The translations under genes were made by a program, and so were the position numbers. Shown piece after piece: positions 730-52,640 of a stretch of DNA of 64,000 nt. The notes beneath the pieces are model-generated. The model did no database searches. It was not told the origin of the DNA and saw nothing but the letters and a program-made list of their open reading frames with translations. Position 1 is the first letter of the stretch, and every line of letters begins with the position of its first letter. The DNA lies in NCBI GenBank assembly GCA_000004695.1, contig CM000151.3, positions 4,672,001-4,736,000 on the forward strand, in the 5' to 3' direction. This stretch comes from Dictyostelium discoideum. Taxonomy: Eukaryota.

Positions 730-1098
730 ATGAATAATTATAACAATGAATTTTCATTTGAAAGATTATTTTGGAAAGTTTTTCATAATAAATATTTATT
801 AAATTTAATAATTCATCATATAGAAAATCAAAATATTGAATATTCAATTGAAGATATTAATAAATGGTATGTTGGTAGTAGAATCAAATGGAAGGATATA
901 AAATCATTGGATTGGTTAGTTGAAAAACAACAATGGTCATTATTAAAATGTAAATTAGAAGCAAATGAATATATTCATGTTAAAGAATCATCATTACATA
1001 AAATCATTCAATATTGTGATAATGATGAATACTTGTTAGAATTATTTTATAATAAATGTTATGAACAAATTAATAATATTATAAATGGTAATAATTTC

Positions 1099-1132
<34 letters not shown>

Positions 1133-3215
1133 GTAATGGTGATAAATTTATATTATCAAAGTTAATAACAAAATATAATAATTTAATATCAACTAAAATT
1201 TTATTACTAAAATTGAATAACCATAATAGTAAATTAATAAAACCAACAATAACAAATACATTATTATTAGAATCATTCAGATCATCAACTTTAGAAATTG
1301 TAAAATTATTATATGAAAATGCTCCAAAAAAAGAGATTGAAAATACAAAGAATCTTTCAATTAAAAGGGCAATTTCTAATATTAAATTTAGCAATCAAAT
1401 AATATCATTCTTGCTAAATGATAGTAATTATTATAATAATAATAATAATTATAATAATGATAATGATAATAATGGTAATACTGATGATAGCAATAATAAA
1501 ATTAGTATATTATCAATATTATCATTAAAATCAATTGAAATTCAAAAGAAAATAATTTCATTAGGTTATGCTTCACCCCCTTTATTAGTTTTTTCAAATA
1601 TTACTTTTAATAAACCAATTTTACAAATGACAATACCAGAATTAATACATTATATTGAAATTATTGAAAAGTATTTTCTATTAAATCAAAATAATAATAA
1701 TAATTTTAAACAAGTAGAAGAAGAAGGAGAAGAAGAGGAAGTAGTAGAAAATAGAGATAATAAAGATGAAGAGAATAATAAAAATCAAAAATTAGAAAAT
1801 TTAAATAAAAGACAATTATTAATAATTTTAATAAAAATGATGGAATTTAAACAAGAATTTTATGAACCTTATTTATATAAATATCAAGAATTTATTAAAA
1901 TTGGTAATATTAAAAGTAATTATAATTATAGAGGTCAACAATCAGTTATTAAATATACTTTTTCAAGATTCGATATTAAAGGTTTAGAATATATTATAAA
2001 TAATTATAATCATTTTAAAGAATATCCATTCAGAGATAAAATTGATTATAGTAAATCATTTAAAGAATTTGAGGATAATAAAGAGTATCAAGAAGAAAAG
2101 ATTATAGAATTTATAAAACTATATTTTAATAGAAAATTAACATTCTTTAAAGAATGGAAATCAATGTTTCAATTCATAATATCAAATTATAGTATAAACT
2201 TAATAGAAAAGTTAACGAATATCAGTGGTATTAAATTAAAGAATTTAGTATTCACAAATTTATTGGGTTTATTTAACTCTTTTATAAAATATAAATGGTA
2301 TTTTTTAAATGTTGTAATTCCAATACAAAATGAAAACTATAAATTAAATAATATTAATAATAATAATAATAACAATAACAATAATAGTAATAATAGTGAT
2401 AATAATAATAATAATAATAATTTAGCAATTGGGAATTTAATGTTTCAAGAGAAACATGAACAAGAAATGAAAATTCAAACTATATATAGTGGTGTGTTAT
2501 CAACAAAGGATATGATAGATTTTATAATAGATATAGTTTTTCCAATCAATAAGACTACTACTATTAATAATGGTCAATATCAATATTTAGCAATTGAAAC
2601 ATATGAATTGGCAGAATATGCATGTTTTGAGAAATTAAAATCATCAAAACCAATACCAGAATTATTCTATTACTCTTTTCATCAATCAATAATTCAGTGT
2701 AATTTAAATAATTTAAAAAAGTTTAAAAATATACAATTTGATATTATTAATAGTTTTGGAAATTCATTTTCATTCAACCTAAATGATCCAGAAAAAGAAA
2801 TCAATCAATTAATTTCATATTTAAATGAAAATAATTATTCAAATTTTACTAAAAAACTATTTTCAAATTTTATTGAAAAATTAATTGACCAACAACAACA
2901 AAACACCAATTTTAGAATAAAGTATATTAATTTTAAAGGATTTGAAAATATAGAAATGGAATTATTATCAAAGTATATAATTGAAATGAAATTTGGATTT
3001 TTAAAGACACTAATTGAATCAAGTGATTCTAATCTATTATTAAAAATTGAAAAGAATTATTTCCAAGATCAAATGAAACGTTTGCGTATAAAATATTATT
3101 TATATAGTAGTAAAGGAATTCCTTTCAAATTTAAATCAACAGAATTAAAATCTGATTATGTTATTGAAATTATTAAATTTTTAATTCTAAAAAGAAATCA
3201 ACAATTTCAAATAAC

Positions 3216-3313
<98 letters not shown>

Positions 3314-3987
3314 GTGGTAATATTTCTTTCATTTTCAATCATTTATATAAAAGATTATTACAATGTGAAGATGTAACATTTGAAAAAGTAAAATATGTTC
3401 ATCAAGAGTTATTCAATATCAAATGTAAAGATAATGAATATTGTAGTGGTGGTGATATTGATATTGAAATTGATCATACTAATACTAGTAGTGTTGTTGT
3501 TTGTGATATTGTCCCTCAAGGTGAAAAAAGAAATGCAATAGAAATTGAAATTGAAGTATTTCATTTATTTTATTTTTTATCATTAAAATCAAGTAAATTC
3601 ATAAAATATATATTATCAAAAGCATCATCATATGAAATATTTTCAGATAGAAAGATTGAATATTACAGTACTTCAGATAGTTATAGATTGTATGTGGAAT
3701 TTGATTTAGGATATTATCTAAATAGTGACTCATTTTCATTCAATATAATTTTCAATACTTCAGATGATGACTTATTTAAATTATTAAGAGAAAAGATATC
3801 ATTATTACCAAGATTACTTAAAAATAGTTTATTATCATTATCAAATACAACAGCTTCAAGAAGATTTAAAACTAACAGATCCGATCTTATTGATATTGAA
3901 AGTGATAAAGAAGATTTCAAATTCCTTTTAGATACAAATCAAATCAAATTAGCAATTTCAATGATGATTGAATATGCCAATAATATA

Positions 3988-4047
<60 letters not shown>

Positions 4048-4440
4048 TCAACCACCAATGATAATAATAATAATTCAAATAATAATATTATTGACAATGA
4101 AAAATATTCAAATTTAATAACTCATTTTTCATTTGATTTGGTTGGAATTATAAATATTGAAAATTATAATGAAAAGGTATGGTTTGAAGAGTTTTTATTA
4201 TTTTTAAAGAATAGATTCACAAAGATTGAAATTAGTATTTTTTATAATATGATGTTAACATCTGTACTGGAAAAATCAAGACTACAAATGATAGACTATC
4301 TTTTAACTTCAAATTGTTTACTAGAATGTAACGTAATCTCATCAGAACTTTTGGAAATAATTAATGGTTTTAAATCTTATCATTTATCTATAAATAATCA
4401 TTTAGATATTTTAAACTATTTAAAAAAAAAAAAACTTTAA
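730..4440 (+). CDS. Hypothetical Asn/Ile-rich protein (1236 aa), single exon; no recognisable catalytic motif
   Basis: Uninterrupted ORF from the six-frame track, with several poly-Asn tracts from (AAT)n, including 36 consecutive Asn encoded at 3204-3312. Coding periodicity is clearly different from the flanking A/T homopolymer intergenic DNA. No conserved domain recognised by eye. Confidence 0.5.
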
Positions 4441-4572
4441 AAAAAAATAAATAAAAATAATGTAATTATATGTATTAAATTTAAATGATTTATTTAATTC
4501 TTTATATTTTATTTATAAAAAAAAAAAAAACAAAAAAAAAAAACAAAAATAGATTGTTCAATTAATAATCTT

Positions 4573-4876
4573 TTATTTTTTCGAAAAGTATTGAGATATA
4601 TTATTGAAGTTATTATTATTATCGTAACCTTGATTACTTTGGAAATATTGAGTGATTACATTTGGATTGTTATCATTATTATTAGGATTATTGGTATTAT
4701 TTTTGTTATTATTGATATTATTATTATTATTATTATTATTGATATTATTATTGATATTATTATTGATATTATTGTTATTATTGTAATTGAGATTAAAATT
4801 AGCATTACCATGACTATTTAAAGTTCCAAAGTTATTTTGGTATTGATGGAATTTAAGATTTCTGTAATTATTACTA

Positions 4877-4908
<32 letters not shown>

Positions 4909-7392
4909 GTTATTATTGTTATTATTATTAATATTATTATTATTTTTATTATTTAAATAATCTTTAAAATTTGGATTAATATTTCGAAATGTAGTTTGAT
5001 TTTTAAAAATAGGAGGTGGTGGCGGTTGTGAAAATTGAAGTGATTGATAATTTTTCTTTTCTTGTTGTTGATCTTTTTTAGATTTATTTTTAGATTTTTT
5101 GGAATTAGAAGATTCTTCCTCATCGTCTTCATCATCCAATTGTTGTTGAAATTGTTGTTGTTGTAAAACTGAAGGATCATCACCAATAATTGAGAAAACC
5201 AATTCGTCTGTATCTTCTTTCTCCAAGTCAATTGTACCATCTTTTCCAATGAAATATTTATTGATTGTATTAACCCTACCTCTCATATCCAAGTTTTGAG
5301 TATGTAAAACCTCTTCTTGTCCATCCAAAGTTTCACCTAAAACCTCGAGTTTATTACAAATGGTTGGCCAAATCCTATCGTCTAGTGTATTCTTACCAAT
5401 TAAGTAATGAATATAACATGTTTTAGTTTGACCAATTCTATGAATTCTATCCTCTGCTTGACGTAATACACCGGGTGTCCAATAAAGTTCAACAAAAACA
5501 ACTAAATTCGATGCTGTTAGTGTTAAACCTGTACCTGCTGCTGTGATACTGAGTAATGCAACTTTACAAGATGCATTATTTTGAAACTTTGTAACGAAAG
5601 CTTGTCTTTGAACTGCTGGTGTCGAACCATCAATACGAATATACCCAGCTCCTGTACTCTTTATTGCTTCCTCTAAACCATTCATAATATCAGCATGATG
5701 AGCGAAAACTAAAAACTTTTCATTCTTTTTAATTAAATTTATAATATAATCACTTGATGCTTTTAATTTGGCTCTACCAGTTTCAACATAAAGGTGCATA
5801 ATTTTATCTTTTTGACCACCACCGCCACCACCACCAATACTATTAGCATTTGGTTGTTTTTGAAATTGTTGAATCATTGATAATTTATTTGATTTTGAAA
5901 ATACTGAACCAACTTCATTTTGAACATCTTTTGGAGTTGGTGTATCAACCACAACTTTTATTCTAACTTTTGGTGGTAAATCCTTTAGCACATCATTTTT
6001 TAACCTACGAATCATAACACCACGAATCAAAACATATAGTTCTTGAAGATGTGAATTACCAGTATAATCCCAACCATAGATTCCTTTGAAAGCATTACAA
6101 TAACGTAAACCAAAATCATTTAATGTTGGATAGATTGAAGCACCCAATGCCAACATTTGAGGAAACAATTCGACAGGTCTTGATAAAGCTGGTGTACCAG
6201 TTAATAAAATTCTAATCTTTGCAGTGTGAACCAATTTCAAAACGTTTTTAGTTCTTTTTGCTTCGGAATTTTTCATATAATGAGATTCATCACATATTAT
6301 AGCCTTGAAAGCTCTTGGTAATAATTCTTTCTCTAATAATCTACCAACTAAATCATAGGAACATATATTGACCATTGCATTTGCTTTATCTTCACCAGTC
6401 ATAATTACATTGATATCGACCGAGGGAAACCATTTCTCAACCTCTTTTGACCATGATAATCTTAATGATGATGGACAAATGATTAATAGTGGCCATTCTG
6501 AACGATAATAGGATGATATTGCCAATGCTTGAATGGTTTTACCCAAACCCATCTCATCACCAATTAAACATTTACCTGACAATTGTTGAGTACAAAATGA
6601 TAATGATTTCATTTGAAATGGAAGTAAGGTTGAGAATAATTCAACGGGTATTCTAGTACAATCGAATGGTAATTTACATTGAAATGCTCTCTCTTGTTGA
6701 TGCTGTAATTGTTGTTTTTTGGTTAACTTTTGTTTCTCAAGATACCATGGATCATGAAGATATCTAAATATTTCTGTTGGAATTGTATTCAATTGAAATC
6801 TTGAGCTCGTACGACTTTGTAATCTTTGTAACATTGTCACTAGGTTTTGGTATTCCGATTTGGGGAATTTCCAAATCTCTTCTTTCTCAAAACGAGTTCC
6901 TTTGGACTGTTTAAATTGTTGTAATATCTCTTCAGTTTCACCCACTATCGGTGGTACAGGATATGTTGTACCAATGATATCTAAATCATATAATTGAAAA
7001 TCAATAATGATTTGATGTGCTTGATTTCTCTTTGGTTTAATTTTACTCATTGGTTTATTATTTGGATTATTCCATTTTAAATCAGTATCAATCGATTCAA
7101 CTCTATAACTTCTTTTATTAATTTGATTACTATCTTCATTGTTTTTAATTGTATCATTAAATTCATTTGTTACATCTGGTATCTCTATTATATCTGAATC
7201 AAATGCTAATCTTGTTTTTTGTTTATTTATTGGTTTTTGTTTATTTGATATTTTACTATCAATAATATCAACTTTATCTTCTTCATCTTCAATTTCAATT
7301 GGTATACATTTAATTCTATCATTATTTTGTTTTTGTTTTTGTCTTTGTTGTTGAGGTTGAGGTTGTTGTTGTGGTTGAAATTGTGGTTGTTC

Positions 7393-7423
<31 letters not shown>

Positions 7424-7859
7424 GTTTCTTGCTTTTTCTGTTGCTGTTGTTTTTGTTGTTGCTGTTGTTGTTGCTGTTGCTGATGTTGCTGCTGTTGTAT
7501 TCTTAATTCTCTTTCATTTTTACTTTTTTCAAAAATTTCATCATAACTATCTGTTATAATATCATCATTAAAATCTATTGACATATTGTTAGTGGAAGAA
7601 GGTGTAGTTGTTTTTGTTGGTGTAGTTATTTTTGTTGGTGCAGTTGGTGAAGTTGGTGAAGTTGGTGAAGTTGGTGAAGTTGGTGAAGTTGGTGAAGTTG
7701 GTGAAGTTGGTGAAGTTGGTGAAGTTGGCTCAGATGGTTTAACTTTTGGTTTAAATGAAATTTCAGGTTGTTTTGATTGGAGAATTGGTGATGATTTGGA
7801 TTGAGGTTTTGATGGTGATATATTGTTGTTTTTTACATTATGTTGTTGTTGATTTATAA

Positions 7860-7938
<79 letters not shown>

Positions 7939-8775
7939 TACATTATTTACAATTGGTTTATTTAAAGTGCTATTATTGAACAACTTTTTTATTGGACTAT
8001 TATTATTACTAGAAGTAAAAGTGGTGGTAGTTGTGGCCATGCTATTGGCTGATGGTGCTATATTTGCTACATTCAAAGAATTTCCTCCATTAGCATTACT
8101 ACTAACGGATTTCAAATTATTATTATTACTATTGTAGTTATTGTTATTGCTATTATTATTATTATCTGATGAATCAAAAACCAACCTCTTTTTAGAGGAG
8201 CTAGGTGCTGTACTATAATCTGTATCAATAGGGTCATCTTCAAAAATCGAACTATCATCTATATTAAATTCATTCATAATATCAAAACTATTACTCAGTC
8301 GTCTTTTTCCAATACTATTATTATTATTAATATTATTAATATTAATATTACTACCATTGTTCGTGTTTACATTATATTTATTAGGGTTGTAAAATTTATC
8401 TGCAGAAGCAAAAATGTCGTCATCATTGAAACTAAACAAATTATTTTGTTGTTGTTGTTGTTGTTGTTGTTGATGTTCTTGTGGTGGAGTGGCAGGTACT
8501 GTTTGTTTATTTTGGTGATTATATAATTCCACATCACTCTCTGTATTGAACCATTTTGAAAATTGACAATCGAGAACTTTACATTTAAAATAAATTCTAT
8601 CTTTATCTTTTCCTGATGAAGGTTGTATTCTTCTACAATATCCAAAATGTGTTGGACATTTAAGTTTGGATACTTTGCTATTATTGTTTACATTATTATT
8701 GTTATTATTATTATTGTTGTTACTATTATTACTATTCGCTGTTGAAGTATTGGTTGTAGTTATAATTGTTGACAT
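4573..8775 (-). CDS. SNF2-family ATPase, SMARCAL1/ZRANB3-like annealing-helicase type, with N-terminal GRF-like zinc finger, poly-Gln tracts and a (SPT)n repeat; single exon, 1400 aa
   Basis: SNF2 N-lobe: 'LLPFQMKSLSFCTQQLSGKCLIGDEMGLGKTIQALAISSYYRSEWPLLIICPSSLRLSWSKEVEKWFPS' closely parallels the SMARCAL1/ZRANB3 block 'LLPFQ...DDMGLGKTIQAI...EWPLL..PSS.R..W'. DExH motif 'ICDESHYMKN'. Helicase-C: 'LVFAHHADIMNGLEE...LLSITAAGTGLTLTASNLVVFVELYWTPGVLRQAEDRIHRIGQ'. A HARP-like segment 'TRFEKEEIWKFPKSEYQNLVTMLQRL' precedes the ATPase. N-terminal zinc finger 'CPTHFGYCRRIQPSSGKDKDRIYFKCKVLDCQFSKWF' has C-x7-C...GRF-like spacing. Confidence 0.8.
7640..7735. repeat. Tandem 9-bp repeat (GAAGTTGGT)x about 10, which encodes (SPT)n on the - strand inside the SNF2 gene
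   Basis: Direct reading: 'gaagttggtgaagttggtgaagttggt...' repeated about ten times. The reverse-strand translation is 'SPTSPTSPTSPTSPTSPTSPTSPTAPT'. Confidence 0.9.
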
Positions 8776-9339
8776 TATTTATTATTCATCGTTTAATTTT
8801 TTTTTTTTTTTTTTTCTTTCTTTCTTTTTATTTTTATTTTGAGTATTGTTTTTATTATTTATTATTATTAGTTGAACCACTAAAAAAGTATATATGATAA
8901 AATTAAAAAAAAAAAATAAAAAATAAAAAATAAAAAATAAAAAATAAAAAATAGAAAAAAAATTCTTGTAAAATGTGTAATTATAAAAATAAATGAAATA
9001 AAAAAAATAAAAATAAAAAAAATCTTTATTTAATAAAAGAGTATATATATATATATATAAAAATATATAAATATAAATAAATTAAAAAAAATTTATCTTT
9101 TTTTTTAAGAAAATTAAGCGCCAAACGTTTTAATTCTAATTCTTTCCCCTTTTAGTTTTTAATAAAAAAAAAATTAAGAAAAAAATAAAAATAAAAAAAA
9201 AAAAATAAAAAAAAATTAAAATTCATTTTCGCAAAAAAAACCTTCGAATTTTTATTTTTTTTTAATTTTTTTATTTTTTTTTATAATTTTTTTATATATT
9301 CAAAATACAGAGAAATATTTTGTTTAAACATTTTAATTT

Positions 9340-12300
9340 ATGACTACAATAGTAGCACCTCCAATAAAATCAATTACTTCAATCGATAATGATGATAACG
9401 TTGATGGTGTTATTGAAAAGTCAGTCAAAAAACCAGTATCTTTAACATTTGATCAAATCATTGATAGATTTTATAAACATATTTTAACATGGGATGCATC
9501 AGATTTATCACCAAAGGTATGTATTTATAAAATAGATAAAACAAATAATAATAATTTCAACAATGGGTGTATACTATAGTATTGGTACTAATACTACTAC
9601 TACTGTATTTATTAATAATAATAATTTTTTTTTTTTTTTAGGAAAAAGAATTAAAACCAGTAAAAGTATCATTTAATAATGAAGAGGATTATATAACAAC
9701 CTATGAACCATTGCTTTTTGAAGAATGTAGAGCACAACTTGAAAGATCAATTGAAGAAGGTGAAAAAGATGATACATCAGAACCTACTTTATCAAGAGTA
9801 CGTTATATTTCAGAAGTAAATGATTTTTTGGTTGTTGGATTAGTAATGGCAGAAAATGTAAATATATTTCAATTTCATGATAATGATTTAATTATGATAT
9901 CACTTCATCATCCTTTAATTGTTTTTGGTATGGATGAAGATGAAGAAATGACTGATGATGAAGATACTGCACCAACTTCTGCTGCAACTCATGTTGGTGC
10001 ACCAACAAAATCAACTACTACAACTACAACAACTACAACAACAACTACTACTACAACTACTACAGCAACTACAAATATAATTGATGATCCAAATAAAACA
10101 ACAGAAGATATAAAGAAAAAGAAAAAGGTTATTCCACCATCAAAAACACCAATAACAGAACAAAATAGAACTTTACATTTAATTGGTACAGTTGAACATT
10201 TAGATAATGGTGGTATAAAGGTTAAATTCTATGTAAAAGGTATTAAAGGTGATCGTGCAAGACAAGTTAGTTTATTATTACGTTATGAAATTGATTGGTG
10301 GACAACTAAATTATGTAATCTTTCAACATTGCAAAGAGAGTTTGCTGCATTGTATCAATGTTCACAATCAAATTTTATGAAGACACTTATGATGAGAGAT
10401 GATGATGGTGAGGATGGTATAGTAATGAAGATTCCACCATTGTTACATGATCAATTCTCTTCAACCTATAATGACAGTCAATTGAATGCACTCACCAGTG
10501 CATTGGAAGGTAATGCAATCACATTGATTCAAGGTCCACCTGGTACGGGTAAAACCCATGTAATTCTCGGTCTCATTAGTGTATTACTTCATTCAACAAT
10601 TGTTCCAAAGGTTAAAAGTGGTGGTAATAATTTAGGTGATCATTTACTAAAGGACAGAGAATTAAGTATGGCAGAGAAGCGTGACCTATGGAATATTTCA
10701 CAACCATGGTTCAATAAGGAATTCCCTCACATTAGAGATAATTATGAATTGATTGATTACGATTTCGAAGAACGTGATCAAAAGAGAAAGAGAGATCTTT
10801 GGAGAAAACTTAGAGATACAGGTTCAGTGAAGGGTGGCTCAACCAAACGTAGAATCTTACTATGTGCACCAAGTAATGGTGCTGTCGATGAAATTGTCTC
10901 TCGTTTAATTCGTGATGGACTTTTGAATGCCGATGGAAGAAAGTACAATCCAAATTTGGTTCGTGTTGGTCCTGGTTCACATAGCGATGTGGAGAGTGTT
11001 TCATTGGATTATATGGTTAGATGTCGTCAACAATTAATGAACTCAAATTCTGCTATACCTTCTTCATCCGCTTCGACAGCCGCTGCAACAAGTGGTTCAA
11101 GTCGTTCCACTCAAGATACTTCCTCGATTAGAACGTTGGTTTTGGATGAAGCTGATATTGTCGCCACAACATTATCATTTAGTGGTGCATCATTGTTGAC
11201 AAAGATGGCAGGTGGTTTCGATATTGTAATCATTGATGAGGCTGCACAAGCCGTAGAAACCTCGACATTAATTCCCATTCAACATGGTTGTAAAAAGGTG
11301 GTGTTGGTTGGTGATCCAAAACAATTGCCTGCCACTATTATCTCGCCATTGGCTATCAAGTATAAATATGATCAATCGTTATTCCAACGTTTACAAGAGA
11401 AGAATTCACCACATATGTTGACCACACAATATCGTATGCATTCATTGATTCGTGCATTCCCCTCACGTCATTTCTATCAAGATCTCTTATTGGATGGTCC
11501 AAACATTCCATCAAGAGCTACACACTATCATTCAAATCCTTTCTTTGGTCCATTGGTATTCTATGATCTATCATGGAGTACTGAAACCAAACCCGGTGGT
11601 GGTTCAGTTTTCAATGAGCATGAATGTAAGATGGCTATGTATCTATTCCAATTGTTTACCAAAGTTTATCCTGATGAAGATTTTGCAAGTCGTATTGGTA
11701 TCATTTCACCATATCGTCAACAGGTTTTAGCATTACGTGAAATCTTTAAAAACTATCCTGGTATCTCTATTGATACCGTAGATGGTTTCCAAGGTAGAGA
11801 GAGAGAAATCATCATTTTCAGTTGTGTTAGAGCACCAGTTGAAGAGGGTGCAGGTATTGGTTTTCTTTCAGATGTTCGTCGTATGAATGTAGCTTTAACA
11901 CGTCCAAGATCATCTCTATTGATCCTTGGTAATACTAAAGCATTAAGTATCAACAAAGATTGGAATGAATTAATTCAACATACTCAAAACAATCAACAAT
12001 TAATTCCTGTTACCAAAGATCAACCATTAGAAATTATCATACCAACTTTTACAACTCGTGAATTATTTACCGAACTCTCTGAAAAAGGTCAACAAATTGT
12101 AATTCCAAAACCAAGAACTGAAGAAGAAATTAATCTTCAAAAACAAAAAGATATTGAAAAAAGAAAGAAACAACATAAAAGACAAAAACAAAAATCAAAA
12201 GAAAATGATAAAAAGAAACAATTAAAAAAAAGAAAAGAATTAAATAATAATGATAATAATAATAATAATAAAGAAAGTAGTAATAAAGAAGTTCAAGAAA

Positions 12301-12368
12301 TTACTAATGCAGAAGTTGTTAAAGACACTGAAATAAATAATACTAAAAGGGCTAGAACAAGAAGATAA
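9340..12368 (+). CDS. Superfamily-1 DNA/RNA helicase of the Upf1/Sen1 (DNA2/NAM7) family; 2 exons: join(9340..9516, 9642..12368)
   Basis: Motifs: Walker A 'GPPGTGKTH'; Ia 'LLCAPSNGAVDEIVSRL'; II 'IVIIDEAAQAVE'; III 'VVLVGDPKQLPAT'; IV 'LTTQYRMH'; V 'IDTVDGFQGREREIIIFSCVRA'; VI 'FLSDVRRMNVALTRPRSSLLILGN'. Intron 9517-9641 begins GTATGT and ends TTTTTTTTTAG. Exon 1 has 59 codons, and exon 2 continues in phase 0 with 'EKELKPVKVSFNNEEDYITTYEPLLFEECRAQ'. C-terminal Lys-rich tail. Confidence 0.8.
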
Positions 12369-12462
12369 TAAAAAAATAAAATAAAAATAAAAAATAAAAA
12401 AAATATTTAAAATCAACTATTTTTTGCTTTTACTAAAAAAAAAAAAAATTTTTTATTTTTTT

Positions 12463-12467
12463 TGTAT

Positions 12468-12506
<39 letters not shown>

Positions 12507-12510
12507 TTAA
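12463..12510. repeat. (TTTA)n microsatellite in the convergent 3' intergenic region
   Basis: 'tatttatttatttatttatttatttatttatttatt' read directly. Confidence 0.9.
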
Positions 12511-12531
12511 AATAATCAATATTTAATTTTA

Positions 12532-13313
12532 TTATTTTTCCTGAACTGGTAAATATAAAGATGGTAAAGTTGGACAAATATCAATATTTTGACAAATTAA
12601 TGATGGTGATTCACTATTATTAATTAAATCAATAACGATTGGAGTATTTTGTAAAACTAAAATTTGACATGTTAAAACCAAATCTTTTGAATCAAGGAGT
12701 TCACATTCCTCATCTAAATATGATATAATCTCTTTCTCTGTAGAGTTTGTTTGTTGGAGATAGTATTCTACCTTTTTGGTTAAATGTTTACAAAATGTAC
12801 ATCCTGAATTCTCTGCTTCTAAATCATTATTATTATTATTATTATTGACTATTAAATTATTAAATTCATATTTATTTACTTTTTTACATAATCCCAACAT
12901 ATTACAAATTTTTGATGGATGTTCTGAATTTCTTATAAGTTTGATTATTAAATCACCATTACACTATTTTTTTAAAAAAAAAAAAAATAATAATCATAAA
13001 ATTGTAAGAAAAAAGTAAAAAAAAAAAAAACTAATATGAAAAAGGGTATTGATTTACATACAAAATCAATCCATTTATCTGGAAGTAAAATATAAGAAGT
13101 TTCAAATTCATTCATTATATAATTTTTTGGTTTTTGTTGTAGTATTAATTCTTTAATATATGATATTAGGAAATTACAATGCTCACATTCCGTCATTTTC
13201 TGTTGTTGTTTGATTGATTTTTGTTGGATTGAATTTTGTTGTTTATTTCCAAAACTAATACCAATAAAACCATTTAATATTAATAATAAACAAACTAAAA
13301 AAATTAATTTCAA
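12532..13313 (-). CDS. Secreted saposin-like (SapB/amoebapore-like) protein with two saposin domains, 227 aa; join(13313..13062, 12963..12532) on the - strand
   Basis: N-terminal signal peptide 'MKLIFLVCLLLILNGFIGISFG'. Two six-Cys saposin-B patterns: 'CEHC...C...(intron)...C...C..C' and 'CTFCKHL...C...C...C.....C'. Intron 13061-12964 (98 nt) begins GTATGT and ends ATAG. Exon 1 ends '...KWIDF' (84 codons). Exon 2 begins 'CNGDLIIKLIRNSEHPSKICNMLGLC', in phase 0. Confidence 0.7.
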
Positions 13314-13315
13314 TT

Positions 13316-13349
<34 letters not shown>

Positions 13350-14285
13350 CTTTAAAGAAAAAACAAGAACAAAAAAATGGAAATTAATTACTTTATATAC
13401 TGTAAAACAAACAAAAAAAAAAATTAATAATTATAGAAAAAAAATGTGAAAATAAAAAAAAAAAGAAAATTTTTAAAGGTTAATTTTTGTTTATTTTATT
13501 TTGTTCATTGGGGTTTATTTTTGTTTCAGATTTAATTTTATAACACTTTTTAAATAAAAAAAAAATTAATAAAAAAATAAAAAAACAAAATAAAACAAAA
13601 CAAAACAACAAAATAAAATAAAATAAAATAAAATGAAACAATATAAAACAAAATAAATCAAAAATAAATCAAACAAAACTAAACATAAAAAAATAAAATA
13701 ATAGAGCACTCAAAAATGCATAAAATGATATAAAAAAATAAAAATAATGAAAGTATTTTTTGGGGATTTACATAAAATAAAAGATTTTTTATTATAATTT
13801 GATAAGAAAACATTTATAAAGATCTTTATAAATTTAATATTAGCATATCACCTAATAGAGAAGTTGTCAAAGCAGTATTTGGTTTGGTTCGTGTTGTTAT
13901 TGCAACCTTTAAAGATACCAAATGTTGAACATTAACACAATAATTTATATAAATGATTTATTAATTAAATTAAATTAGTTAAAAATACTAGCCTAAATTA
14001 TTGCTCATGTTTTATCGGAATCTTGTAATAGAAAAATATAATAAAATTAAATAAATAAATAGATATAAATAAAAATAAAGTAATAAGTTGATGCTATTAT
14101 CGAAAATATCTAAAATTTATTATGAATATTTTTTACTATTGAAAATTTTTATACTTGAGATTTAAAATTATGTTTATGAGTTTTTCAATCGACATTAAAA
14201 ACTCACCACGTGGCTTTTTCCCACATAGGTGAGAAAAGTCTAATTTTTTTCAAAATAAATATTTTGGTGAATAATTTCAAAAATC

Positions 14286-31191: not shown

Positions 31192-34100
31192 TTATTCAAA
31201 TAAATTTTCATTTTCAGGTTGATTTTCTTCATCATCATTTGCTGAAGGAGCCATTTGAGTCCAATTTTGGAAATGAGCAGGTCTATGAGATTCATCATAA
31301 AAGTTTTTAGGATAATCTAATTTCAAACCATAGGTCATATTTGTGGAATGTTTAACACCCATGAAATTATAATTCCAAGAACCACGATCAGGTACCATAT
31401 AGAAACCAAGGAAACGATCGGATAATAACATTTGAACCTTCTCATAGAATTGTGGTTGATAACCTTGATAATTGAGAGAATCTTTATTATTTTTACCCCA
31501 TTCAAAACCACTTGGAGTCAAATGGTAAGCAGTTAGAGTACAAGGCCAAGCCACAGAGACAGAGATGATAACAGTTTTCTCACCATCCCAACTCTTATTG
31601 TCAGACATAATCTTTGAATGAGTGATAACATCTTGTGGTGATAGTTGTGGTAATTCAGTTGGTTGAGTGTGAATCCAACCCAATGGTTCTAAATCTTTGA
31701 GATATTCATGTTCTGGTAATTGATTTGGTACGGTTACATGAACTGGTGTACCCCATTGTGGTGGCATTACAATACAACGAATTTCTTTTACTGATGGATT
31801 ATCGGGTGGTGAGATACCATAACAATAACCCATGATTTGAGTACGAAGATCGGCAATGGTAATGAATTTCTTTAAGATATTCTTTGGGAAAACATAAGTG
31901 AAACCACCAGTTTCTTTAGCGTTATCAGAGTTTACATAGATTTGATTGGTACGTAAATGAAGATTAGTTGCACTGATAGCACGTACACGCCAATCTGTTT
32001 TTGAAGAGAATACTTTTTGTTCATGTGGTGATGTAGCGGTTGTGATAATCTCTTCACCATGAATATTGGTTGAACGAACTGTAACGGCTGTTAAATGAGA
32101 TGCTTCTGTTTTTTGTTTTTCAATCTCTGCGATTTGATCTTCACGTTGTTGTGATGGTGCAGAAATTTCCATACCCAAAATGATATCTCTAATCTCTGAT
32201 TGAGTGAGCGAAGCAACGTTTACATTATTTCTTTTACCAAAATCTGCTAAAATCAAATCTTTCAATGAACCTTCAACGGTTAACCATTCTTGTTCTGTTA
32301 GAGTTGGCCAAATATGATGAGGTTGAGTGATAACATTTTTATTTGGTTTCAATATGATTTTAGTACGTTCTAAATTGACATGAAGTGCACGTAAGATTAG
32401 AATCAAACGAAGGAAAGCAGTGTAAGAATGAATTGTTGATAACCAATCATCATAGATATTGAAGAGTACCATCTTTGGTTCGGTTGCTTTCAAAATGAGA
32501 TCACCAAACTTCTCTACTTTCAAACAAGCTTGGAATGGTAATTGAAGTTCACTACCTTGAATGACGATATTTGGGAAATCTAAAAGATGTACCTCCAATG
32601 GATCCATCATACCTTTACGAGTGGCAATGATTTGTTTTGGTTGTTCTTCCACTGGTAAGGAACGAATTAATGCAGCAACCTCCTCGGCAGTCTTCCATTT
32701 TGCTAATTGACCTAAACGTTTTTGACCTAACCAAACATCGGTATGAATGATCTTGAGGAATAATTGACCAGTACGTGGATTGAAAATGAAAATTGCACCA
32801 TTGATTGGTTTAGTTGTTAAATTACCTTCAAAAGTTTTATGAATGGTTACACGATAAACATTGGAATCATCAACGAACCACATAATTTTATTACTAAATA
32901 ATTCACCAAAGTTTTGACTTGATAAGTAAGGTTCAGTTGGTTCGGATGAATATAATTGTAAACCTTTACGAATACGTTCACGTAGTACATAGAGTGCAGG
33001 ATTGGATTTCAAAATTTTTGCCATTGCTTTTTGAACCAAAGGTTTAACACCAAGGAACCAATTACCAAAGGAACTGTAGATATTGTAAGCCAAATCTAAA
33101 CCAATCAAACAACCAGTTGGTGATGGATACAATGACATACTATCGGTTGTATAATCCAAGAATTTGGCACGACTGTATCTCTCGATATCATGAGAATCGA
33201 AATCACCCCATTTCAATTGAACATCCAACCAATATTGAGTGGTGGTATTATCATAGGTATCACGATTATCATTTAACAATGATGGACGACTAACTTGCCA
33301 TTTATGAGTTGCACGTAAAAGAATATCAGCACATGATGAATTCATTTTATAAGATTTACGTGGATGAATTGCTTCTTTATTTACTACTGATATCTCTAGA
33401 TTATCCAATTCTTGATCGAAAACTTGACATAAATCCATTACTAATGATTCATGAATCTTTTGCCAAAGATGTGCACGGAAAATTTGAATCAATGAAATCT
33501 TTAGTGTTGGAATTTTACCATGCATGAAAATACCTGTTAAATCCAATTGAACTTGGAAACCAACATAAACATTCTTACGATTGATAGTTGGAGACCACCA
33601 AAGTGTGAAACGACGATTTGGAATTTGATTAAGACCTGAACGTTGAGCGTGTGTAAGTTTTTTATATTTCATAGACTCTTCGAAACCTGATGCTTTCTCC
33701 CAAAATAAACCTTCCCAAGTTGGGAAATAAGTACCTTTGAATAGAGTATGCTCTAGAATACCTTCAACACCACCCAATGCTTGAATGATATCTGTACGAT
33801 AATTATTAAGATTCCAAAGTTTACCATCATGACGTTGATTAGTCCACCAGAATGGATTATTCTTTAGGACTTGATATTGTTTCCAATCGGTTCTTACTCT
33901 CCAACCTTTATCATAAGCTAAAGTATGACGACTCTTTTGGAATAATGTATTGATACGTGGTATACCACGATCCCAACTATCTTCAAGATCCTCCAATGTA
34001 AGATTCTTATTTTGTGATTTAGCCTCTTCATATTTGATTGCATATTCTGCCCAAACACGTTGACTATCTTTAATTTCTTGTTCCCATGGTTGAATGTAAC

Positions 34101-37100
34101 GATAAAGATTTGGAATTAATTGATCTTCATCATGACTCATACCACTTGTGAAATGAGTTATACCAGTATCGGTTTGTTTTGAATATTTCAAATCCGATTG
34201 TGGAATCAATACATGACCCATACTTAACATACCTAAACCACCCAACTCCTTTGGTGTATAGAATACCACTGGTGGGAAACGATTTGGCATCTTACTATTC
34301 AATCCAATCTTTACACGAGTTTGAATTTTATTTTCACAACGCACTAAAATATCCAACATTTCACGAGTTGTAACCACCGCCTCACGATAATAAGTCATTA
34401 AACCAATCAATGCTGTATTCCATTTATTTACAATCTTTGTGAATGTTGTTGAACCACTTGCCATGAGGATCATACGAATACGATTTTCAAAACGTTCTTG
34501 TGATTCTGTATCGACCCTAAGGAATGCTTGAGCCGTACGTTCTTTGGTATTAACATTTTGAAGACTCCAAACTGCATCCTTTGGTGCCAATTGATCCAAG
34601 GGTGTACGACATTTTGGAAGTATACGAATATCGAAACCTGCCATATTCATCAATAGATTTGGATTATCTTTACTATAGACCGATACGAATGAATCCTCCC
34701 AATCAATGGTTGTCAATGAACGTGGTAATCTATTTTTAATTTGCCAAAATACTGCTCTACCCAAGTTAACATCATGTTTCATTAAACGCATACGACAATC
34801 ACGTGGCCAACATTTCTTATTGTTATAACCAACCACATTTTCATTGTTTGGATCTGGATGTTCTGACATATACTTTTGAATTAATTTTCTTGCTTCATCC
34901 GCTGTAAATTTATAGAGTACATGAATACGATCAACATAACGACTATACAAACGAATTGGATGGGCGGTTTCAGTTTGAACTGATGGGAATGTAAGGAATG
35001 AATTTGGTAAGTTTGGTGGTCCTGCAAGTGCTGATGCACGTTCTAAACCCAATACTAAAAGATCCAATACCAAACCATAATATTGGAAAATAAATGATGC
35101 AAATTGTAAACCTCTAATTAAACCATAAGAGTTGGTATGATTCATATCCTTATAGTTGATTACTACATTATTCTTACCAGACATATAATCGGCAATATTT
35201 TGATCAACAATTAAACGTAACAAACGATTCATCAAAGTTAAATCCATCTTTTCATAAACTTTACTAAATTGAGTCTCTAATAAAACAACACATTCACCTT
35301 GACTAGTCTCCCAAACTTGATCTAAATTATTAATACCTTGACACCATTTATGAATGAGTACAGGTGGTGGTTCATTATCGGATGGTTTAACCCAATTTGG
35401 AAAGAGTTGACGTTTATCTGCTTCATACCATAGATATTGATCCAAATAGGCATCGGTGATCTTTTCAAATGGATCTACATCATAGATTGGTACTAGATGA
35501 GTGTACATATCCATAAATTCAATACCAACCTCTTTAAAGGTACGTTGAGTGAGTAAATGTCTTTTGATACGAGCTAATGCATCATGAGGATTATCATAAG
35601 CTTGTTCAACCAATGATAACTCCTCACGTTGTGATTGATTTAAACGTGATTTAACACTGTATGCCTCTTTAAGACGTTCCAATGCCAATGTGAGAATTTT
35701 AATATCGTGTTTGTATGAAGTTTGAGGGAATGGAATCGCAGAGAATCTACGTTTCTCCAACCAATGAACAGTGGTGGTATAAATGGCAACAGCTTCCTCT
35801 GCCGATACGTATGGACCATCCTTTAGATAATTATGTTGACGTTCTTGTTCTGCCTTTAACCAAAGTCTAGTTAAACGACCCAAATTCTTTTTACTTGCAG
35901 TTTTATCGATGGTAGCACCACGTTTAATACGTTCACGATTGTAATGAGCTATATTTGTCCACCAATCTGCTTTTGATTTAACATAACGTAGAATCATATT
36001 CTCTATTGGTATTGGTAAACCTGGTACTTTCCATGGGATATTTGATTTCCAACATCTCCAAGCCTCTGAAAGATGTTGTAAGATAATACGTGATTTATTT
36101 GCTTTGATTCCTTCTGGCATCATATCGAGGATATCATGCATTACTGCTGCACGTAATTCATAATCGAAATGAGATTCAACACGTTGTTTAGTGACTGTTT
36201 TGGCCATACCTTTGGTTTGTCTACCTTCGAATTGTCTTGCCAATAGATTTCCAAGCCAACGTTCCAACAAAGGTACTATACCACGTAAAAAGAATAACCA
36301 AACTCTCCACATTGGTGCCCAAAAACCACAACCTGGACCTTTACCAACAGCGCCAGTATTGAAACGATAGTAGATTAAATGTTTCAAATCTTTACACATA
36401 CGAATTTGTCTCATTAAACGATACTTGTATTTATACATACCAGTCAATAGACCCAAATGACTAAATAAATATTGAATAGCATCTGCCAATTGAAAAGCAT
36501 CTGCATCACCTAATCTAAATTTCACATGAACATCAACCACCAATTTAGTTAAACGTAATATCTCTCTACACAAATGGAATGCATTACCAAATCTTGATTT
36601 CTTTCTCTCCTTTGTTGTTAGAGTTTTAATTGGTTTCAAATAGAAATTGTAATCCAAATGTAAATAATTCAAATTCTTTCTATGAATTAATAGATTTAAC
36701 ATATTGTAACCTTGACGACAAACTTGTAAACCTGCCTCTACCCAATCAATCTCTGTAGATTGAAAGAATTTAGTTGCTTTCAATGATTTAAATAAATTTC
36801 TTTTAGTTTGTGCTTTTGGTTTACGATGATGTAATTTATTCAATACATGACATTTCAATAACTTTTGATAACTAACTCTAACTTTAACTGGATGTTCACT
36901 TGGACAATGTTCTTTATACCATGATTTAACTAATGGAATATCCTCTGCTCTTCTAGTTGTACCTGATCTTAATGAAAATGGTCTTGGTGCCCAATATAAT
37001 TGTATACCATTTGCTAAATTATCATGTTCAATCTCTGTTTTTGATAATATTGTTTCAATTTCTTCTGGTAATTGAAATTCATCATCTTCTGTACCATCTT

Positions 37101-38497: not shown

Positions 38498-38806
38498 TTA
38501 TTTTATATTAATAAATAAATAGAGTTTATTTAAATATTAAAAAAAAATAATTTGGTGATCCTCTGAAAAAGTGAATGAAAATGAAAAAAAAAAAAAAAAT
38601 TTAAAAAAAAAAAAATGTGAAAAAAAAAAGCATTCTTTTTCAATTGTCGAAATTTTTTAAAGCGCACAAATTTGGAGGCCCTATATATATTTTATTAAGT
38701 TTTTTTTTTTTTTTTTTTTTTTCCCTTAATCGTACAGTAATTGAATAATTTTATTCAAATGTTTTTTTTTTTTTTTTTTTTTTTTTCCTTTATTAGTGCG
38801 CGATAT

Positions 38807-42056: not shown

Positions 42057-44839
42057 TTAAACTAATTGATCAGCATATATTGATTTACTATCAAAATCAT
42101 CAATACTATTGATTGGTGAAATTGATGGTTGTAATCTTGATTGTGGTGGAGGTAATGGAGGTGATGACATTGAATCAATTGATGAATGTAATATATTATC
42201 ATTTGATTGATTTATTGAATTACCATTCTTTGATTTCTTTGTAGGTTTATTCTTTTTAAAATTTTTCTTTATTCTATTTTTTAATAAAATTCTTGAAGTT
42301 TTACTATACAATTTAAATTTAATATTTAATACTAATCCAACAACTAAAATTACACCTATTACAATTATTGCTATTACCCAACCATTCTTTTCAATAAAAC
42401 CTTTTTGAACATTTTTCGAAATTTTAGAATTATTATTTTCACCACCAATACTATTATTATTATAATTATTATTATTATTATTTGAAAATAATAAATCATG
42501 ATTATATATTGTTAATTCCTTTCCACCACTTTTACCATTAATTATTACATTTACAAATAATAATTTATCAATTATTAAATTTGTTTGTTGTTCAACTAAA
42601 CAAGTTATACATGATGAATTTATAAATGAAATATTTGAACAATTATAATATCCAATTGAAATATAATCAATTTGTTTATAAAATTCATTTCCTGTAATTA
42701 TTACTAAACCAGTTGATTTTGAAATTGTAGTATTTAAAACTAATGGTGGGTAAAATTTAATTGAGATATTTTCATGTTTATTATTAAATACAACTTCCAA
42801 ATATTGATCATTTGGGCCATTAATATTCATTTGGCAAGAAATTGTTGAGAAATTTATAAATGTACAATTATAATCTAAATTATTGGTAACACAATGAAGG
42901 TGAGAATTTTCAATTGTTTCTTTTACAAAGTTTTTACCAATAATTAAAATTGAGCCACCTGTTGAATTAAAAATTGGATTTGTTTGAAAATAGTCAACAC
43001 TTGGTGAGATATCAACTTTTAATGGTACTGTGAATTCATTACAAACTTCAAGTTTAAATTCACTAGATCCATACTCTGGTTTCAATGGGAATGAAATTAA
43101 TGAATTTGTAAATTTGATTGATATATTTGCAACATTATCAACAATTATTGAATTTGAAAAAATAATCTTAATTTTACCACTTTTATATAAATCAATAAAA
43201 TCTTGATATTGACCAACACATTCAATCATTTGATTATTTCCAATTGAACAATTATTAACAATTGGTAAATTGTAATTAAATTCTGAATGAATTGTATCAT
43301 TACCAATTGATATCAAAAATCCATTTCTACCACACCCTTTTGGAATTGTAAATGAATATGTATGTTTTGAGAAATCAGTAGAGTTTTTTAAATCAATACC
43401 AGTGATTTTACTATTATCAGATTGTAGTGTAATTATTGGTGTTGAATTATAATTTAATGGATTTATATTATAAAGTGTGAAATTTACAATTTGACCATTT
43501 ACAGATGGAGATGCTGGATTTTGTATCGAATAAAATGGAGAGGTTATTTCAGCAATGTTTGATTTTAAACCATTTACAACTACATTTATTTTTGATTTTG
43601 TTATTTGATTTGGTTTAAATAAAATTGAAGTTTGATTTTCATTAACAAGAATTTTTAAATTAGTTTGTTGAACATCATCAATAAATATTTGAGTAGTTTC
43701 ATTTGTACCAAAGAAATTACCAGATAGTTTCACTTCACCTTGTATAATTATTATGTTTGTTATAATAGGTTGATCAAATGAGAATAGTAATTTATTTTCA
43801 TTTGAAATTGAATTAATGGTTAATTTGATAGGTAAATTAACTGAATCACCATTATTAATAATAGGATCAATTCTACAAATTAATTGTTGATTTATAAATG
43901 TTACATTTTTACAATCATATGTACCAATTTTAACAAGTATAGTCGAATTGGCTAGCAATGATGGTGGTGGAGATAGTCTTGAACCTGTTATTGTTATTAG
44001 ACCACCATACTTTTTTGAAACACTATTGGCACTGTTTAAAATTGGTTTATAATCAAATGAAACATGATTGGATCCTAAGCCACCAGATATTATATGCAAT
44101 GATACTGATTTACTATATGGTTGGATGTATGCTATTTCAAAAATTTCATGATCAATTAGAGTTATATTAGATTTATCAATTTTGATACCCTCTATGAAAA
44201 TTGTTACATAATCTATAATGTTACAAAAGTTTGATCCATTTGCAATTATTTTAGTATCACTTGATGAAACACTTGAAATGTTTGGTTTTTGATGATTAAA
44301 TGTATAGTTGAAATTATTTGGCCAAGTGAATGTTCTAGGACCACAACCTCCTTTATAATCAAGAGTTAAGTTTGTAATATCAATTGTTGAAGATTCAAGA
44401 TCACCAATAATTGGCACCTTTGTTGAAGGAAGGATAGTAAATTTTGTAATACCAAAAACTAAATAATATCCTTGAATATTAACATAACCACCTTTAGTAG
44501 GTGGTTTAAATTCACCATCTATTATTGGTTGTGGATAATAATCTTTCCACAAAAATGAATTACATTCAGATGCTCCGTTTGTACTTGTAATACAATTTAA
44601 AATTTGACCTTTAAATTTCTTAACTATTGTTTCATTAACAGAACCAACACAAGTTCTAATAACTGTATTATTTGTACAAGAAAATGGTAAATCTACATCT
44701 GTAAATTCCCATTTTGAAAAATAATTACTATTTTTATCAAATATATAAGTTATTGAATCTTTTGTAAAATTTGATCCTTTTTATAAAAATAAAAAACTAA
44801 CATTATTAATTTTTTTGTTTATTTTTATTATTATTTTCC

Positions 44840-46639: not shown

Positions 46640-48060
<1,421 letters not shown>

Positions 48061-49859: not shown

Positions 49860-51290
<1,431 letters not shown>

Positions 51291-51515: not shown

Positions 51516-52640
51516 ATGGAATGTGGAGATGTTCAAGCTTTAGTAATCGATAATGGTTCTAGTATAAGTAAAGCCGGTTTTGCGGGTGATGATGCTCCAC
51601 GTGCTGTTTTCCCATCAATTGTTGGTCGTCAAAGATATAGGGATGTTATGGTTGGTATGGGTCAAAAGGATTCATATGTAGGTGATGAGGCTCAATCAAA
51701 AAGAGGTATCTTAAATCTCAAATATCCAATTGAACGTGGTATCATAACCAATTGGGATGATATGGAAAAGATCTGGCATCATACTTTCTACAATGAACTA
51801 CGTGTTGCACCAGAGGAGCATCCAATACATTTAACCCTATCTCCATCAAGTTCAAAAGCAAACAGAGAAAAGATGACTCAAATCATGTTTGAAACTTTCA
51901 GTAATCCAGCAATGTACATATCAATTCAATCAGCTTTATCATTATATGCATCTGGTCTTACCACTGGTATTGTCATTGATTCAGGTGATGGTGTTTCCCA
52001 CACTGTACCAATCCTTGAAGGTCATTCAATAAACCATGCTATCTCACGTTTGGATTTGGCTGGTAATGATCTCACTGATTATTTGGGTAAATTATTATCT
52101 GGACGTGGCTATCCATTCATATCAATTGACGAAACAGAAATAGTCAGAGATATCAAAGAAAAACTATCATATATCACATTAGATTTCCAAAATGAAATTA
52201 AAATTGTTTCATCAGCATTAGAGAAATCATATGAATTACCAGATGGTAAAGTGATTTCAATTGGTAATGAACTTTTTCGTTGTCCAGAAGCTCTCTTCCA
52301 ACCATCATTCTTAGGTATGGAATCAGCTGGTATTCACGAAACCACATACAATTCAATTATGAAATGTGATGTCGATATTCGTAAAGACCTATATGATAAT
52401 GTTGTATTATCAGGTGGTACAACTATGTTCCCAGGTATTGCTGATCGTATGAACAAAGAATTAACTGCATTAGCACCATCAACAATGAAAATCAAAATCA
52501 TTGCACCACCAGAACGTAAATACTCAGTTTGGATTGGTGGATCAATGTTATCATCGCTCTCAACTTTCCAACAAATGTGGATTTCCAAAGAAGAATATGA
52601 CGAATCTGGTCCATCAATTGTTCACAGAAAATGTTTCTAA
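51516..52640 (+). CDS. Divergent actin paralogue, 374 aa, intronless: the N-terminal two-thirds is diverged, and the C-terminal one-third plus the start of the 3'UTR is near-identical in nucleotides to the upstream canonical actin
   Basis: '[52 protein letters not shown]...' carries substitutions in the phosphate-1 loop (GSGMCKAG to GSSISKAG) and around residues 38-42 (PRHTG to QRYRD), and a 2-codon deletion near 'MQTAASS'. From about codon 245 onward ('ELPDG...SIVHRKCF'), the DNA at 52230-52700 matches 50750-51200 almost base for base. Confidence 0.85.

Follow-up and report, generated by a model that had tools for sequence, protein, structure and literature searches.

A 64,000-nucleotide stretch of the Dictyostelium discoideum genome (assembly GCA_000004695.1, contig CM000151.3, forward-strand positions 4,672,001 to 4,736,000), here called the window, contains two divergently oriented genes for predicted genome-maintenance helicases, which are referred to as gene A and gene B. 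Gene A encodes a SNF2 ATPase of the SMARCAL1 family with a GRF-type zinc finger near its N-terminus, in the place where the animal proteins have a motif that binds the C-terminal domain of RPA32 (RPA32C). Gene B encodes a Sen1-type helicase of the kind named MAGATAMA3 in plants. The best explanation of the locus, which is probably correct, is that the two genes are independent, ordinary neighbours, gene A encoding a protein with a diverged functional GRF finger, a HARP domain and an ATPase, and gene B a helicase of the MAGATAMA3 kind. To our knowledge, the recruitment of SMARCAL1 to stalled replication forks is understood almost wholly through the contact with RPA32 in animals.

Gene A consists of one uninterrupted open reading frame (ORF), and its orthologues in D. 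firmibasis, D. citrinum and D. cf. discoideum are also single-exon calls, with products of 1407-1460 residues. From the N- to the C-terminus, the gene A product is composed of the GRF finger, a low-complexity linker of ~500 residues, a HARP domain, the SNF2 ATPase and a low-complexity tail. The ATPase was matched by the Pfam families SNF2-rel_dom (112 bits, 3.4e-32) and Helicase_C (57.5 bits, 1.9e-15). SMARCAL1 was the top-scoring family in every homologue search, and SNF2 remodellers of other subfamilies in the PDB matched gene A at ~1e-40 only.

The HARP domain scored under the 25-bit cut-off of its Pfam model (14.4 bits, E=0.029). It reached 33.8 bits with a profile of 22 homologues, from which the gene A protein and its Synstelium orthologue were left out, and the maximum of 2000 shuffled sequences was 9.2. 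The HARP family profile also matched the solved HARP of SMARCAL1 (4o66, 1.5e-9). On these sequence comparisons, the gene A product is assigned to the SMARCAL1 (HARP-type) subfamily, in agreement with the SMARCAL1-like SNF2 ATPase that the initial annotation had placed on the minus strand. The ZRANB3-like identity offered in the same annotation was rejected because the NZF and HNH domains are absent (neither these nor PIP/APIM motifs were found by Pfam C-terminal of the ATPase at E up to 1, and the C-terminal 200 residues are of low complexity); the HARP domain, moreover, lies on the N-terminal side of the ATPase.

Comparison with animal SMARCAL1 showed an ATPase core that is 37-47% identical, with HARP directly N-terminal of the core in both. 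The animal protein has two HARP domains, whereas a single one was detectable in gene A with the HARP profiles. A further difference is that gene A lacks the N-terminal RPA32C-binding motif, and has instead the GRF finger, the long linker and the 200-residue tail. ATP-driven strand annealing and fork regression by the gene A product are predicted from its family membership. Asn, Gln, Ser and Thr together make up 74% of the sequence N-terminal to the finger, 51% of the linker and 58% of the tail. Within the linker is a perfect (PTS)9 repeat, whose nine consecutive Ser/Thr-Pro sites are a possible phosphorylation array. Convergent with gene A is a 1236-residue Asn-rich ORF (730-4440, plus strand) without a Pfam match, the stop codons of the two being 132 bp apart; a homologue of this ORF was not detected at the D. 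purpureum locus.

The cluster of Cys and His residues near the N-terminus of gene A was regarded as a real, diverged GRF-type finger because of its matches to Pfam and to a custom hidden Markov model (HMM), its conservation in orthologues, and the matches of the family profile to solved GRF fingers. The N-terminal GRF-like zinc finger of the initial annotation is thereby upheld, and was delimited to residues 40-75 (CPTHFGYCRRIQPSSGKDKDRIYFKCKVLDCQFSKW). PF06839 was the sole Pfam family that matched this segment (15.6 bits, E=0.018), over model positions 3-44 of 45. A custom GRF HMM, built from the GRF fingers of SMARCAL1 homologues, gave it 16.4 bits, above all of 2000 composition-matched shuffles (maximum 12.5). 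The proposed zinc ligands are C40, H43, C65 and C70; the aromatic positions F72 and W75 belong to the terminal C-x-F-x-W.

Orthologues of gene A were recovered from dictyostelid genomes by tblastn on loci reached via the neighbouring helicase gene. The pattern C-x2-H...C-x4-C...F-x2-W, which includes the proposed ligands, is retained in five of them (D. firmibasis, D. citrinum, D. cf. discoideum, D. purpureum and T. lacteum). The same five keep the ending C-x-F-x-K/N-W of the finger, surrounded by flanks of fast-evolving low-complexity sequence that are almost entirely changed. At the central G-R-x-F motif of the family, gene A shares DRIY with D. citrinum and D. cf. discoideum. D. firmibasis has GRIY, within a canonical GRIYF; the D. 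purpureum sequence is GKIL and that of T. lacteum GKFS.

A profile of the SMARCAL1-associated fingers (15 rows, one of them the window segment) matched the solved GRF fingers of NEIL3 (2.7e-25), APE2 (4e-11) and ZCCHC4 (5e-6), and nothing else notable; when the gene A finger was used by itself, phmmer found nothing among PDB sequences. The AlphaFold2 (AF2) models of the finger predict a three-stranded sheet, and the single-sequence AF2 model has the GRF strand order. DNA contacts of the NEIL3 GRF1 finger are made by R518, R521 and W547 (PMC9561275). In the alignment, R49 and W75 of gene A line up with R518 and W547, both of which contact single-stranded DNA (ssDNA). The segment includes 10 basic and 3 acidic residues, for a net charge of +7, and the GRF fingers of APE2 and NEIL3 bind ssDNA and forks (PMC9561275). 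Binding of zinc and of ssDNA by the gene A finger is inferred.

Compared with the fingers of APE2, NEIL3 and ZCCHC4, that of gene A shares the C-x2-H ... C-x(4-12)-C ... F-x-W arrangement of the APE2/NEIL3 subtype, a basic surface and the equivalents of NEIL3 R518 and W547, and a three-stranded sheet is predicted for it. It differs from them in having DRIY for GRxF, a shorter C-terminal loop, Pro at the position of R521 and a sub-threshold Pfam score. ZGRF1 is a GRF finger fused to an Upf1-like superfamily 1 (SF1) helicase, a family related to gene B. Here too a GRF finger is combined with a genome-maintenance helicase, but it is found on the SNF2 neighbour and not on the SF1 helicase, and there was no sign that the products of genes A and B cooperate.

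The vertebrate RPA32C-binding motif is absent from gene A, which scored -25.6 bits with an RPA-motif HMM built from 55 vertebrate N-termini and one protist sequence; the absence of the canonical SMARCAL1 motif, implied in the initial annotation, is thus sustained. None of the GRF-bearing homologues scored above 0.4 bits with this HMM. The distribution of both modules was surveyed in the SMARCAL1 family through a HMMER search with the HARP-ATPase core, in which the best 150 representatives of 50%-identity clusters were scanned with custom profiles. GRF fingers were found in 22 of these representatives (~15%), with one to three fingers in each, all N-terminal of motif I, and the vertebrate-type N-terminal RPA32C-binding motif in 26 of the 150. 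No representative (0/150) had both. HARP was detected in 98/150. Among the top 120 SMARCAL1 matches, nine have PF06839 at the same N-terminal position, and three more were recognized by pattern.

Members of the family with a GRF finger were found in Dictyostelium, Tieghemostelium, Hemimastix kukwesjijk, the ichthyosporean Chromosphaera perkinsii and the red alga Hildenbrandia rubra, and among fungi, chytrids included, in Cladochytrium, Polychytrium, Anaeromyces, Paraphysoderma and Gigaspora. Because it occurs in ~15% of the SMARCAL1-family clusters and in many eukaryotic groups, the N-terminal finger is a widespread alternative module and not a peculiarity of gene A. Literature searches did not find a published account of the combination of SMARCAL1 with a GRF finger. 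The architecture is already latent in public domain annotations, and is a modest variant on a known family. The homologue searches also returned a SMARCAL1-like protein of 1103 residues in which the ATPase is followed by a RanBP2-type zinc finger (PF00641), so that a SMARCAL1-type core bears a module in the style of ZRANB3.

The initial annotation had raised the question of whether amoebozoan SMARCAL1 orthologues generally carry the finger and lack the RPA-binding motif. Six dictyostelid species have the finger, and the motif is missing from gene A. The homologues of Pelomyxa and Entamoeba are without a GRF finger, and so is a second dictyostelid SMARCAL1 paralogue with HARP and ATPase, present in P. 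violaceum, T. lacteum, A. subglobosum and D. purpureum. This fingerless paralogue is also without the RPA32C motif, according to the two proteins that were scored on the profile.

A mechanism can be proposed in which the gene A finger, as a zinc-bound basic module of three strands, would bind exposed ssDNA or fork junctions directly, in the way of the APE2 and NEIL3 fingers. The disordered linker of ~500 residues would tether the finger to the HARP-ATPase, letting the motor act on an adjacent junction. By this means, the finger could concentrate the motor at stalled forks without a contact to RPA32C; it lies at the N-terminal place that the RPA32C-binding motif has in animal SMARCAL1, and would substitute for that tether. 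The independence of gene A recruitment from RPA is inferred. The suggestion of the initial annotation, that the finger represents an alternative way of recruiting an annealing helicase to ssDNA, is reasonable and is strengthened by the mutual exclusivity of the GRF finger and the RPA motif across the family.

The gene A finger is probably the local form of an old architecture, with one or more GRF fingers followed by HARP and the SNF2 ATPase, shared by many non-animal eukaryotes. A bolder version, which we regard as somewhat doubtful, is that the GRF finger was the ancestral RPA-independent ssDNA finder of the SMARCAL1 remodellers, kept in amoebozoans, early-diverging fungi, an ichthyosporean, a red alga and Hemimastix, and that animals later swapped in the RPA32C-binding peptide.

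Gene B was found to be divided into two exons by a short intron, a split not mentioned in the initial annotation; the spliced product has 967 residues, and the orthologues cover 100% of the spliced model. Pfam identified AAA_11 (1.4e-62) and AAA_12 (1.6e-59). The assignment to the Sen1/Upf1 family of SF1 helicases, on the plus strand, was confirmed and could be narrowed to the Sen1 branch, since the helicase core matches Sen1 structures clearly better (8ftm, 1.9e-95; 5mzn, 3.8e-87) than UPF1 (2e-50). Several of the matches are named after 'probable helicase DDB_G0274399', which is probably gene B itself. Orthologues from the D. discoideum complex share 90-94% identity with it, the one from D. 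purpureum 76% and those from other dictyostelids 63-65%.

The nearest relatives of gene B outside Amoebozoa are the plant MAGATAMA3 proteins, short (~820 residues) Sen1-like helicases that match at E ~1e-130; identity to MAGATAMA3, known as a Sen1-like helicase of Arabidopsis, is 39-41% over 65-70% of the length of gene B. Unlike Sen1 and SETX, gene B has no large N-terminal domain, and Sen1 (2231 residues) aligns with it over residues 1551-1953 only. Gene B is accordingly classified, from its sequence relationships, as an SF1B helicase of Sen1 type, short like the MAGATAMA3 proteins of plants. A role in R-loop resolution or transcription termination would be an extrapolation, because the protein is of the short MAGATAMA3 type and does not have the big N-terminal domain of Sen1 and SETX.

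The coordinates and strands of both genes in the initial annotation were correct, as was the A/T-rich spacer of 564 bp between the start codons at 8775 (minus strand) and 9340 (plus strand). The head-to-head pair is kept only within the D. discoideum complex. The two genes are separated by an intervening gene in D. purpureum, and the Sen1-like gene has other divergent neighbours upstream in the three more distant dictyostelids compared (Table 1). On this distribution, the pairing appears to be young and without visible constraint, having arisen recently within the group-4 Dictyostelium. With tblastx, no remnant of the D. purpureum isochorismatase gene was detected, either within the spacer or among the three close species; elsewhere in the window this gene had one weak tblastx match (38642-38737). 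In T. lacteum, the GRF-SMARCAL1 orthologue is divergently paired with an unrelated gene for 581 residues, 133 bp apart (locus 5868-6000), and such pairs therefore form readily. The head-to-head arrangement is what a compact genome gives by chance, and the comparative evidence speaks against selection for it.

The spacer contains 22 runs of A or T of at least six bases, T19 (8797-8815) and A13 (9193-9205) among them, and a period-7 array, (AAAATAA)9, at 8899-8962, whose length differs among the four close species. A tract reported around 9045-9060 was found as (TA)9, its exact position being 9042-9059. The window as a whole has 24% GC, with poly-Asn/Gln coding tracts and 51 segments under 15% GC. 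Intergenic DNA of D. discoideum has an average length of ~700 bp, 13% GC and long homopolymer tracts (PMC5295588), and the length and AT-richness of the spacer are typical of this genome. No Rfam families or tRNAs were found in positions 4000-13500. A scan of the spacer for bacterial-type promoters and terminators was discarded as irrelevant for a eukaryote, and gave fewer sites than in shuffled sequences.

Alignment of the spacers from the window, D. cf. discoideum, D. citrinum and D. firmibasis showed ~75% identity with many indels, and four GC-bearing islands that are invariant in the four species (Table 1). The longest invariant block includes a match to the E2F consensus TTTSSCGC. This is the one match in the 64-kb window, and the related loci of the three other species also have a single match each; none was found upstream in the corresponding regions of D. 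purpureum or T. lacteum. The expected number in 564 bp is ~0.006, scaled from 0.68 per window. The region of AACCACTAAAA is a likely core promoter or start site of gene A, judging by the TATATA and T-run that it follows. A separate TATA/T-run core promoter seems to precede each gene close to its ATG, the two being ~400 bp apart.

These elements bear on the proposal of the initial annotation that the spacer is a true bidirectional promoter co-regulating both helicases, for example in S phase or under replication stress. The divergent orientation with a spacer under 1 kb, the invariance of the four islands against a background of frequent indels, and the position of the sole E2F match between both genes are consistent with it, and elements located there, the conserved E2F-consensus site among them, could act on both genes. 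In Dictyostelium, genes for S phase and for repair are under Rb/E2F control (PMC3386910); however, the part of the rblA-regulated gene table that was covered includes neither DDB_G0274399 nor any DDB_G027437x-42x gene. The arrangement itself is not conserved, with the intervening gene and no E2F match in D. purpureum and with other neighbours in T. lacteum, C. fasciculata and H. album, and the two putative core promoters are distinct. It is usual in this genome for divergent pairs to have spacers of ~700 bp (PMC5295588), and part of the conservation of the islands may be neutral because the four compared species are close relatives. Being recent and typical of a compact genome, the gene arrangement carries little weight. 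The shared promoter is thus a weak idea, the weakest part of the earlier interpretation, and we consider it unlikely; that the genes are independent neighbours is the preferred reading.

For the finger, the strongest rival in terms of mechanism is that it serves as a receptor for a protein, for instance a phosphopeptide, and not as an ssDNA binder. TTF2 is a member of a different SNF2 subfamily, without HARP. Its layout is equal in other respects, since TTF2/lodestar and gene A both have N-terminal finger(s), a long disordered linker and then the SNF2 ATPase. The GRF-like fingers of TTF2 bound phospho-TRAIP, and their binding to single- or double-stranded DNA was undetectable (bioRxiv 10.1101/2024.12.01.626218). 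Together with this precedent, several observations weigh against a DNA-binding GRF finger in gene A. The Gly of the 'GRF' signature is Asp in D. discoideum, and GK..L replaces GR..F in D. purpureum, so that the Dictyostelium finger is off the consensus (G to D in the former, R to K and F to L in the latter). The equivalent of the NEIL3 contact R521 is lost, being Pro (P52). The zf-GRF profile, named in the initial annotation as a check, was the only Pfam profile to match and did so over nearly its full length, but the score of 15.6 bits falls below the gathering cut-off of 25.9. A fold search with an independent single-sequence model was unspecific and did not retrieve GRF structures. The exclusivity of finger and RPA motif is itself confounded by phylogeny, and is partly phylogenetic, because the RPA-motif profile is almost wholly of vertebrate origin, and a short diverged RPA-binding motif may lie elsewhere in the 500-residue linker.

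Nevertheless, the two residues that match DNA contacts of NEIL3 (R49 and W75) are conserved and the finger has its net charge of +7, binding of ssDNA and forks is known for the fingers of APE2 and NEIL3 (PMC9561275), and an ssDNA anchor is of obvious use to a fork-remodelling enzyme. Taken together, these points make the receptor function improbable. The low Pfam score and the unspecific fold search would also agree with a decaying relic or a chance pattern of Cys and His without present function, as would the Synstelium orthologue model without an N-terminus, which may be a truncated gene model. On the other side, the ligands and the F/W positions are kept in six dictyostelid species, as far as T. 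lacteum (whose core is 58% identical), while the flanks are almost wholly changed, and the finger scored above all composition-matched shuffles. Conservation over this distance makes a functionless relic very improbable, and a diverged finger that functions in gene A by binding ssDNA is the reading retained here.

Table 1. Features of the gene pair and its spacer (window positions), and the corresponding arrangement in other dictyostelids.
Feature	Position	Strand	Remarks
Gene A, SMARCAL1 family	4573..8775	-	single uninterrupted ORF, 1400 residues plus stop; ATG 8773-8775
SNF2 ATPase core, residues 722-1115	5431..6612	-	motif I DEMGLGKT 740, DESH 829, motif VI QAEDRIHRIGQ 1106
HARP domain, residues 588-673	6757..7014	-	directly N-terminal of ATPase
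(PTS)9 perfect repeat, residues 350-376	7648..7728	-	in linker; from sequence
Diverged GRF-type zinc finger (predicted) CPTHFGYCRRIQPSSGKDKDRIYFKCKVLDCQFSKW, residues 40-75	8551..8658	-	Pfam, custom HMM and orthologues
Divergent spacer	8776..9339	.	564 bp, 9.9% GC; 271 A, 237 T
Invariant island AACCACTAAAA	8875..8885	.	on minus strand, follows TATATA and T-run
Invariant island AAAAAATTC..GTAAAATGTGTA	8957..8979	.	four-species alignment
Longest invariant block AGCGCCAAACGTTT	9117..9130	-	invariant in four species
TTTGGCGC, match to E2F consensus TTTSSCGC	9118-9125	-	inside AGCGCCAAACGTTT; consensus scan
Same E2F-consensus site, written as GCGCCAAA	9118-9125		in spacer
Invariant islands AAATTCATTTTC and CGAATTTTTAT	9219..9255	.	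upstream of TATAAT and T-run before gene B ATG
Gene B exon 1	9340..9516	+	59 codons; ATG at 9340
Gene B intron	9517..9641	+	125 nt, GT..AG, phase 0; spliced model
Gene B exon 2	9642..12368	+	includes stop; helicase core AAA_11/AAA_12 ~10467-11936
D. firmibasis, D. citrinum, D. cf. discoideum			upstream of Sen1-like gene: same head-to-head SMARCAL1-like gene
D. purpureum	locus 8662-9324	-	isochorismatase gene (Pfam-positive) between SMARCAL1 orthologue (GRF 7953-8087) and helicase (from 10001)
C. fasciculata			upstream of Sen1-like gene: Saf4/Yju2 gene; no SMARCAL1 homologue within 10 kb
H. album			upstream of Sen1-like gene: DONSON gene; no SMARCAL1 homologue within 10 kb
T. lacteum			upstream of Sen1-like gene: uncharacterised gene; no SMARCAL1 homologue within 10 kb; GRF-SMARCAL1 orthologue on another contig

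Other genes were identified in the remainder of the window. An actin cluster is composed of three ORFs (46776-47906, minus strand; 50018-51148, plus strand; 51516-52640, plus strand), the first two of which are head to head over a spacer of ~2.1 kb and have identical products of 376 residues, the third product having 374 residues. Most of the gene for the spliceosome protein Prp8 is found at 31192-36858 (minus strand); a further exon must hold its N-terminal part. A TgrO1-like gene with Ig domains maps to 42057-44552 (minus strand). The ORF at 58779-62381 (minus strand) encodes 1200 residues, and its sole Pfam match was the C-terminal domain of FtsX-like permeases (1.8e-27), a mainly bacterial domain here located in a eukaryotic gene.

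If it is true that many non-animal members of the SMARCAL1 family use a GRF finger in the manner proposed for gene A, tethering to RPA would be one of two interchangeable solutions for recruitment, and a module that reads DNA would suffice to aim the HARP-ATPase motor. Dictyostelium is haploid and tractable, and its GRF-bearing and GRF-less paralogues would allow both modes of recruitment to be compared.

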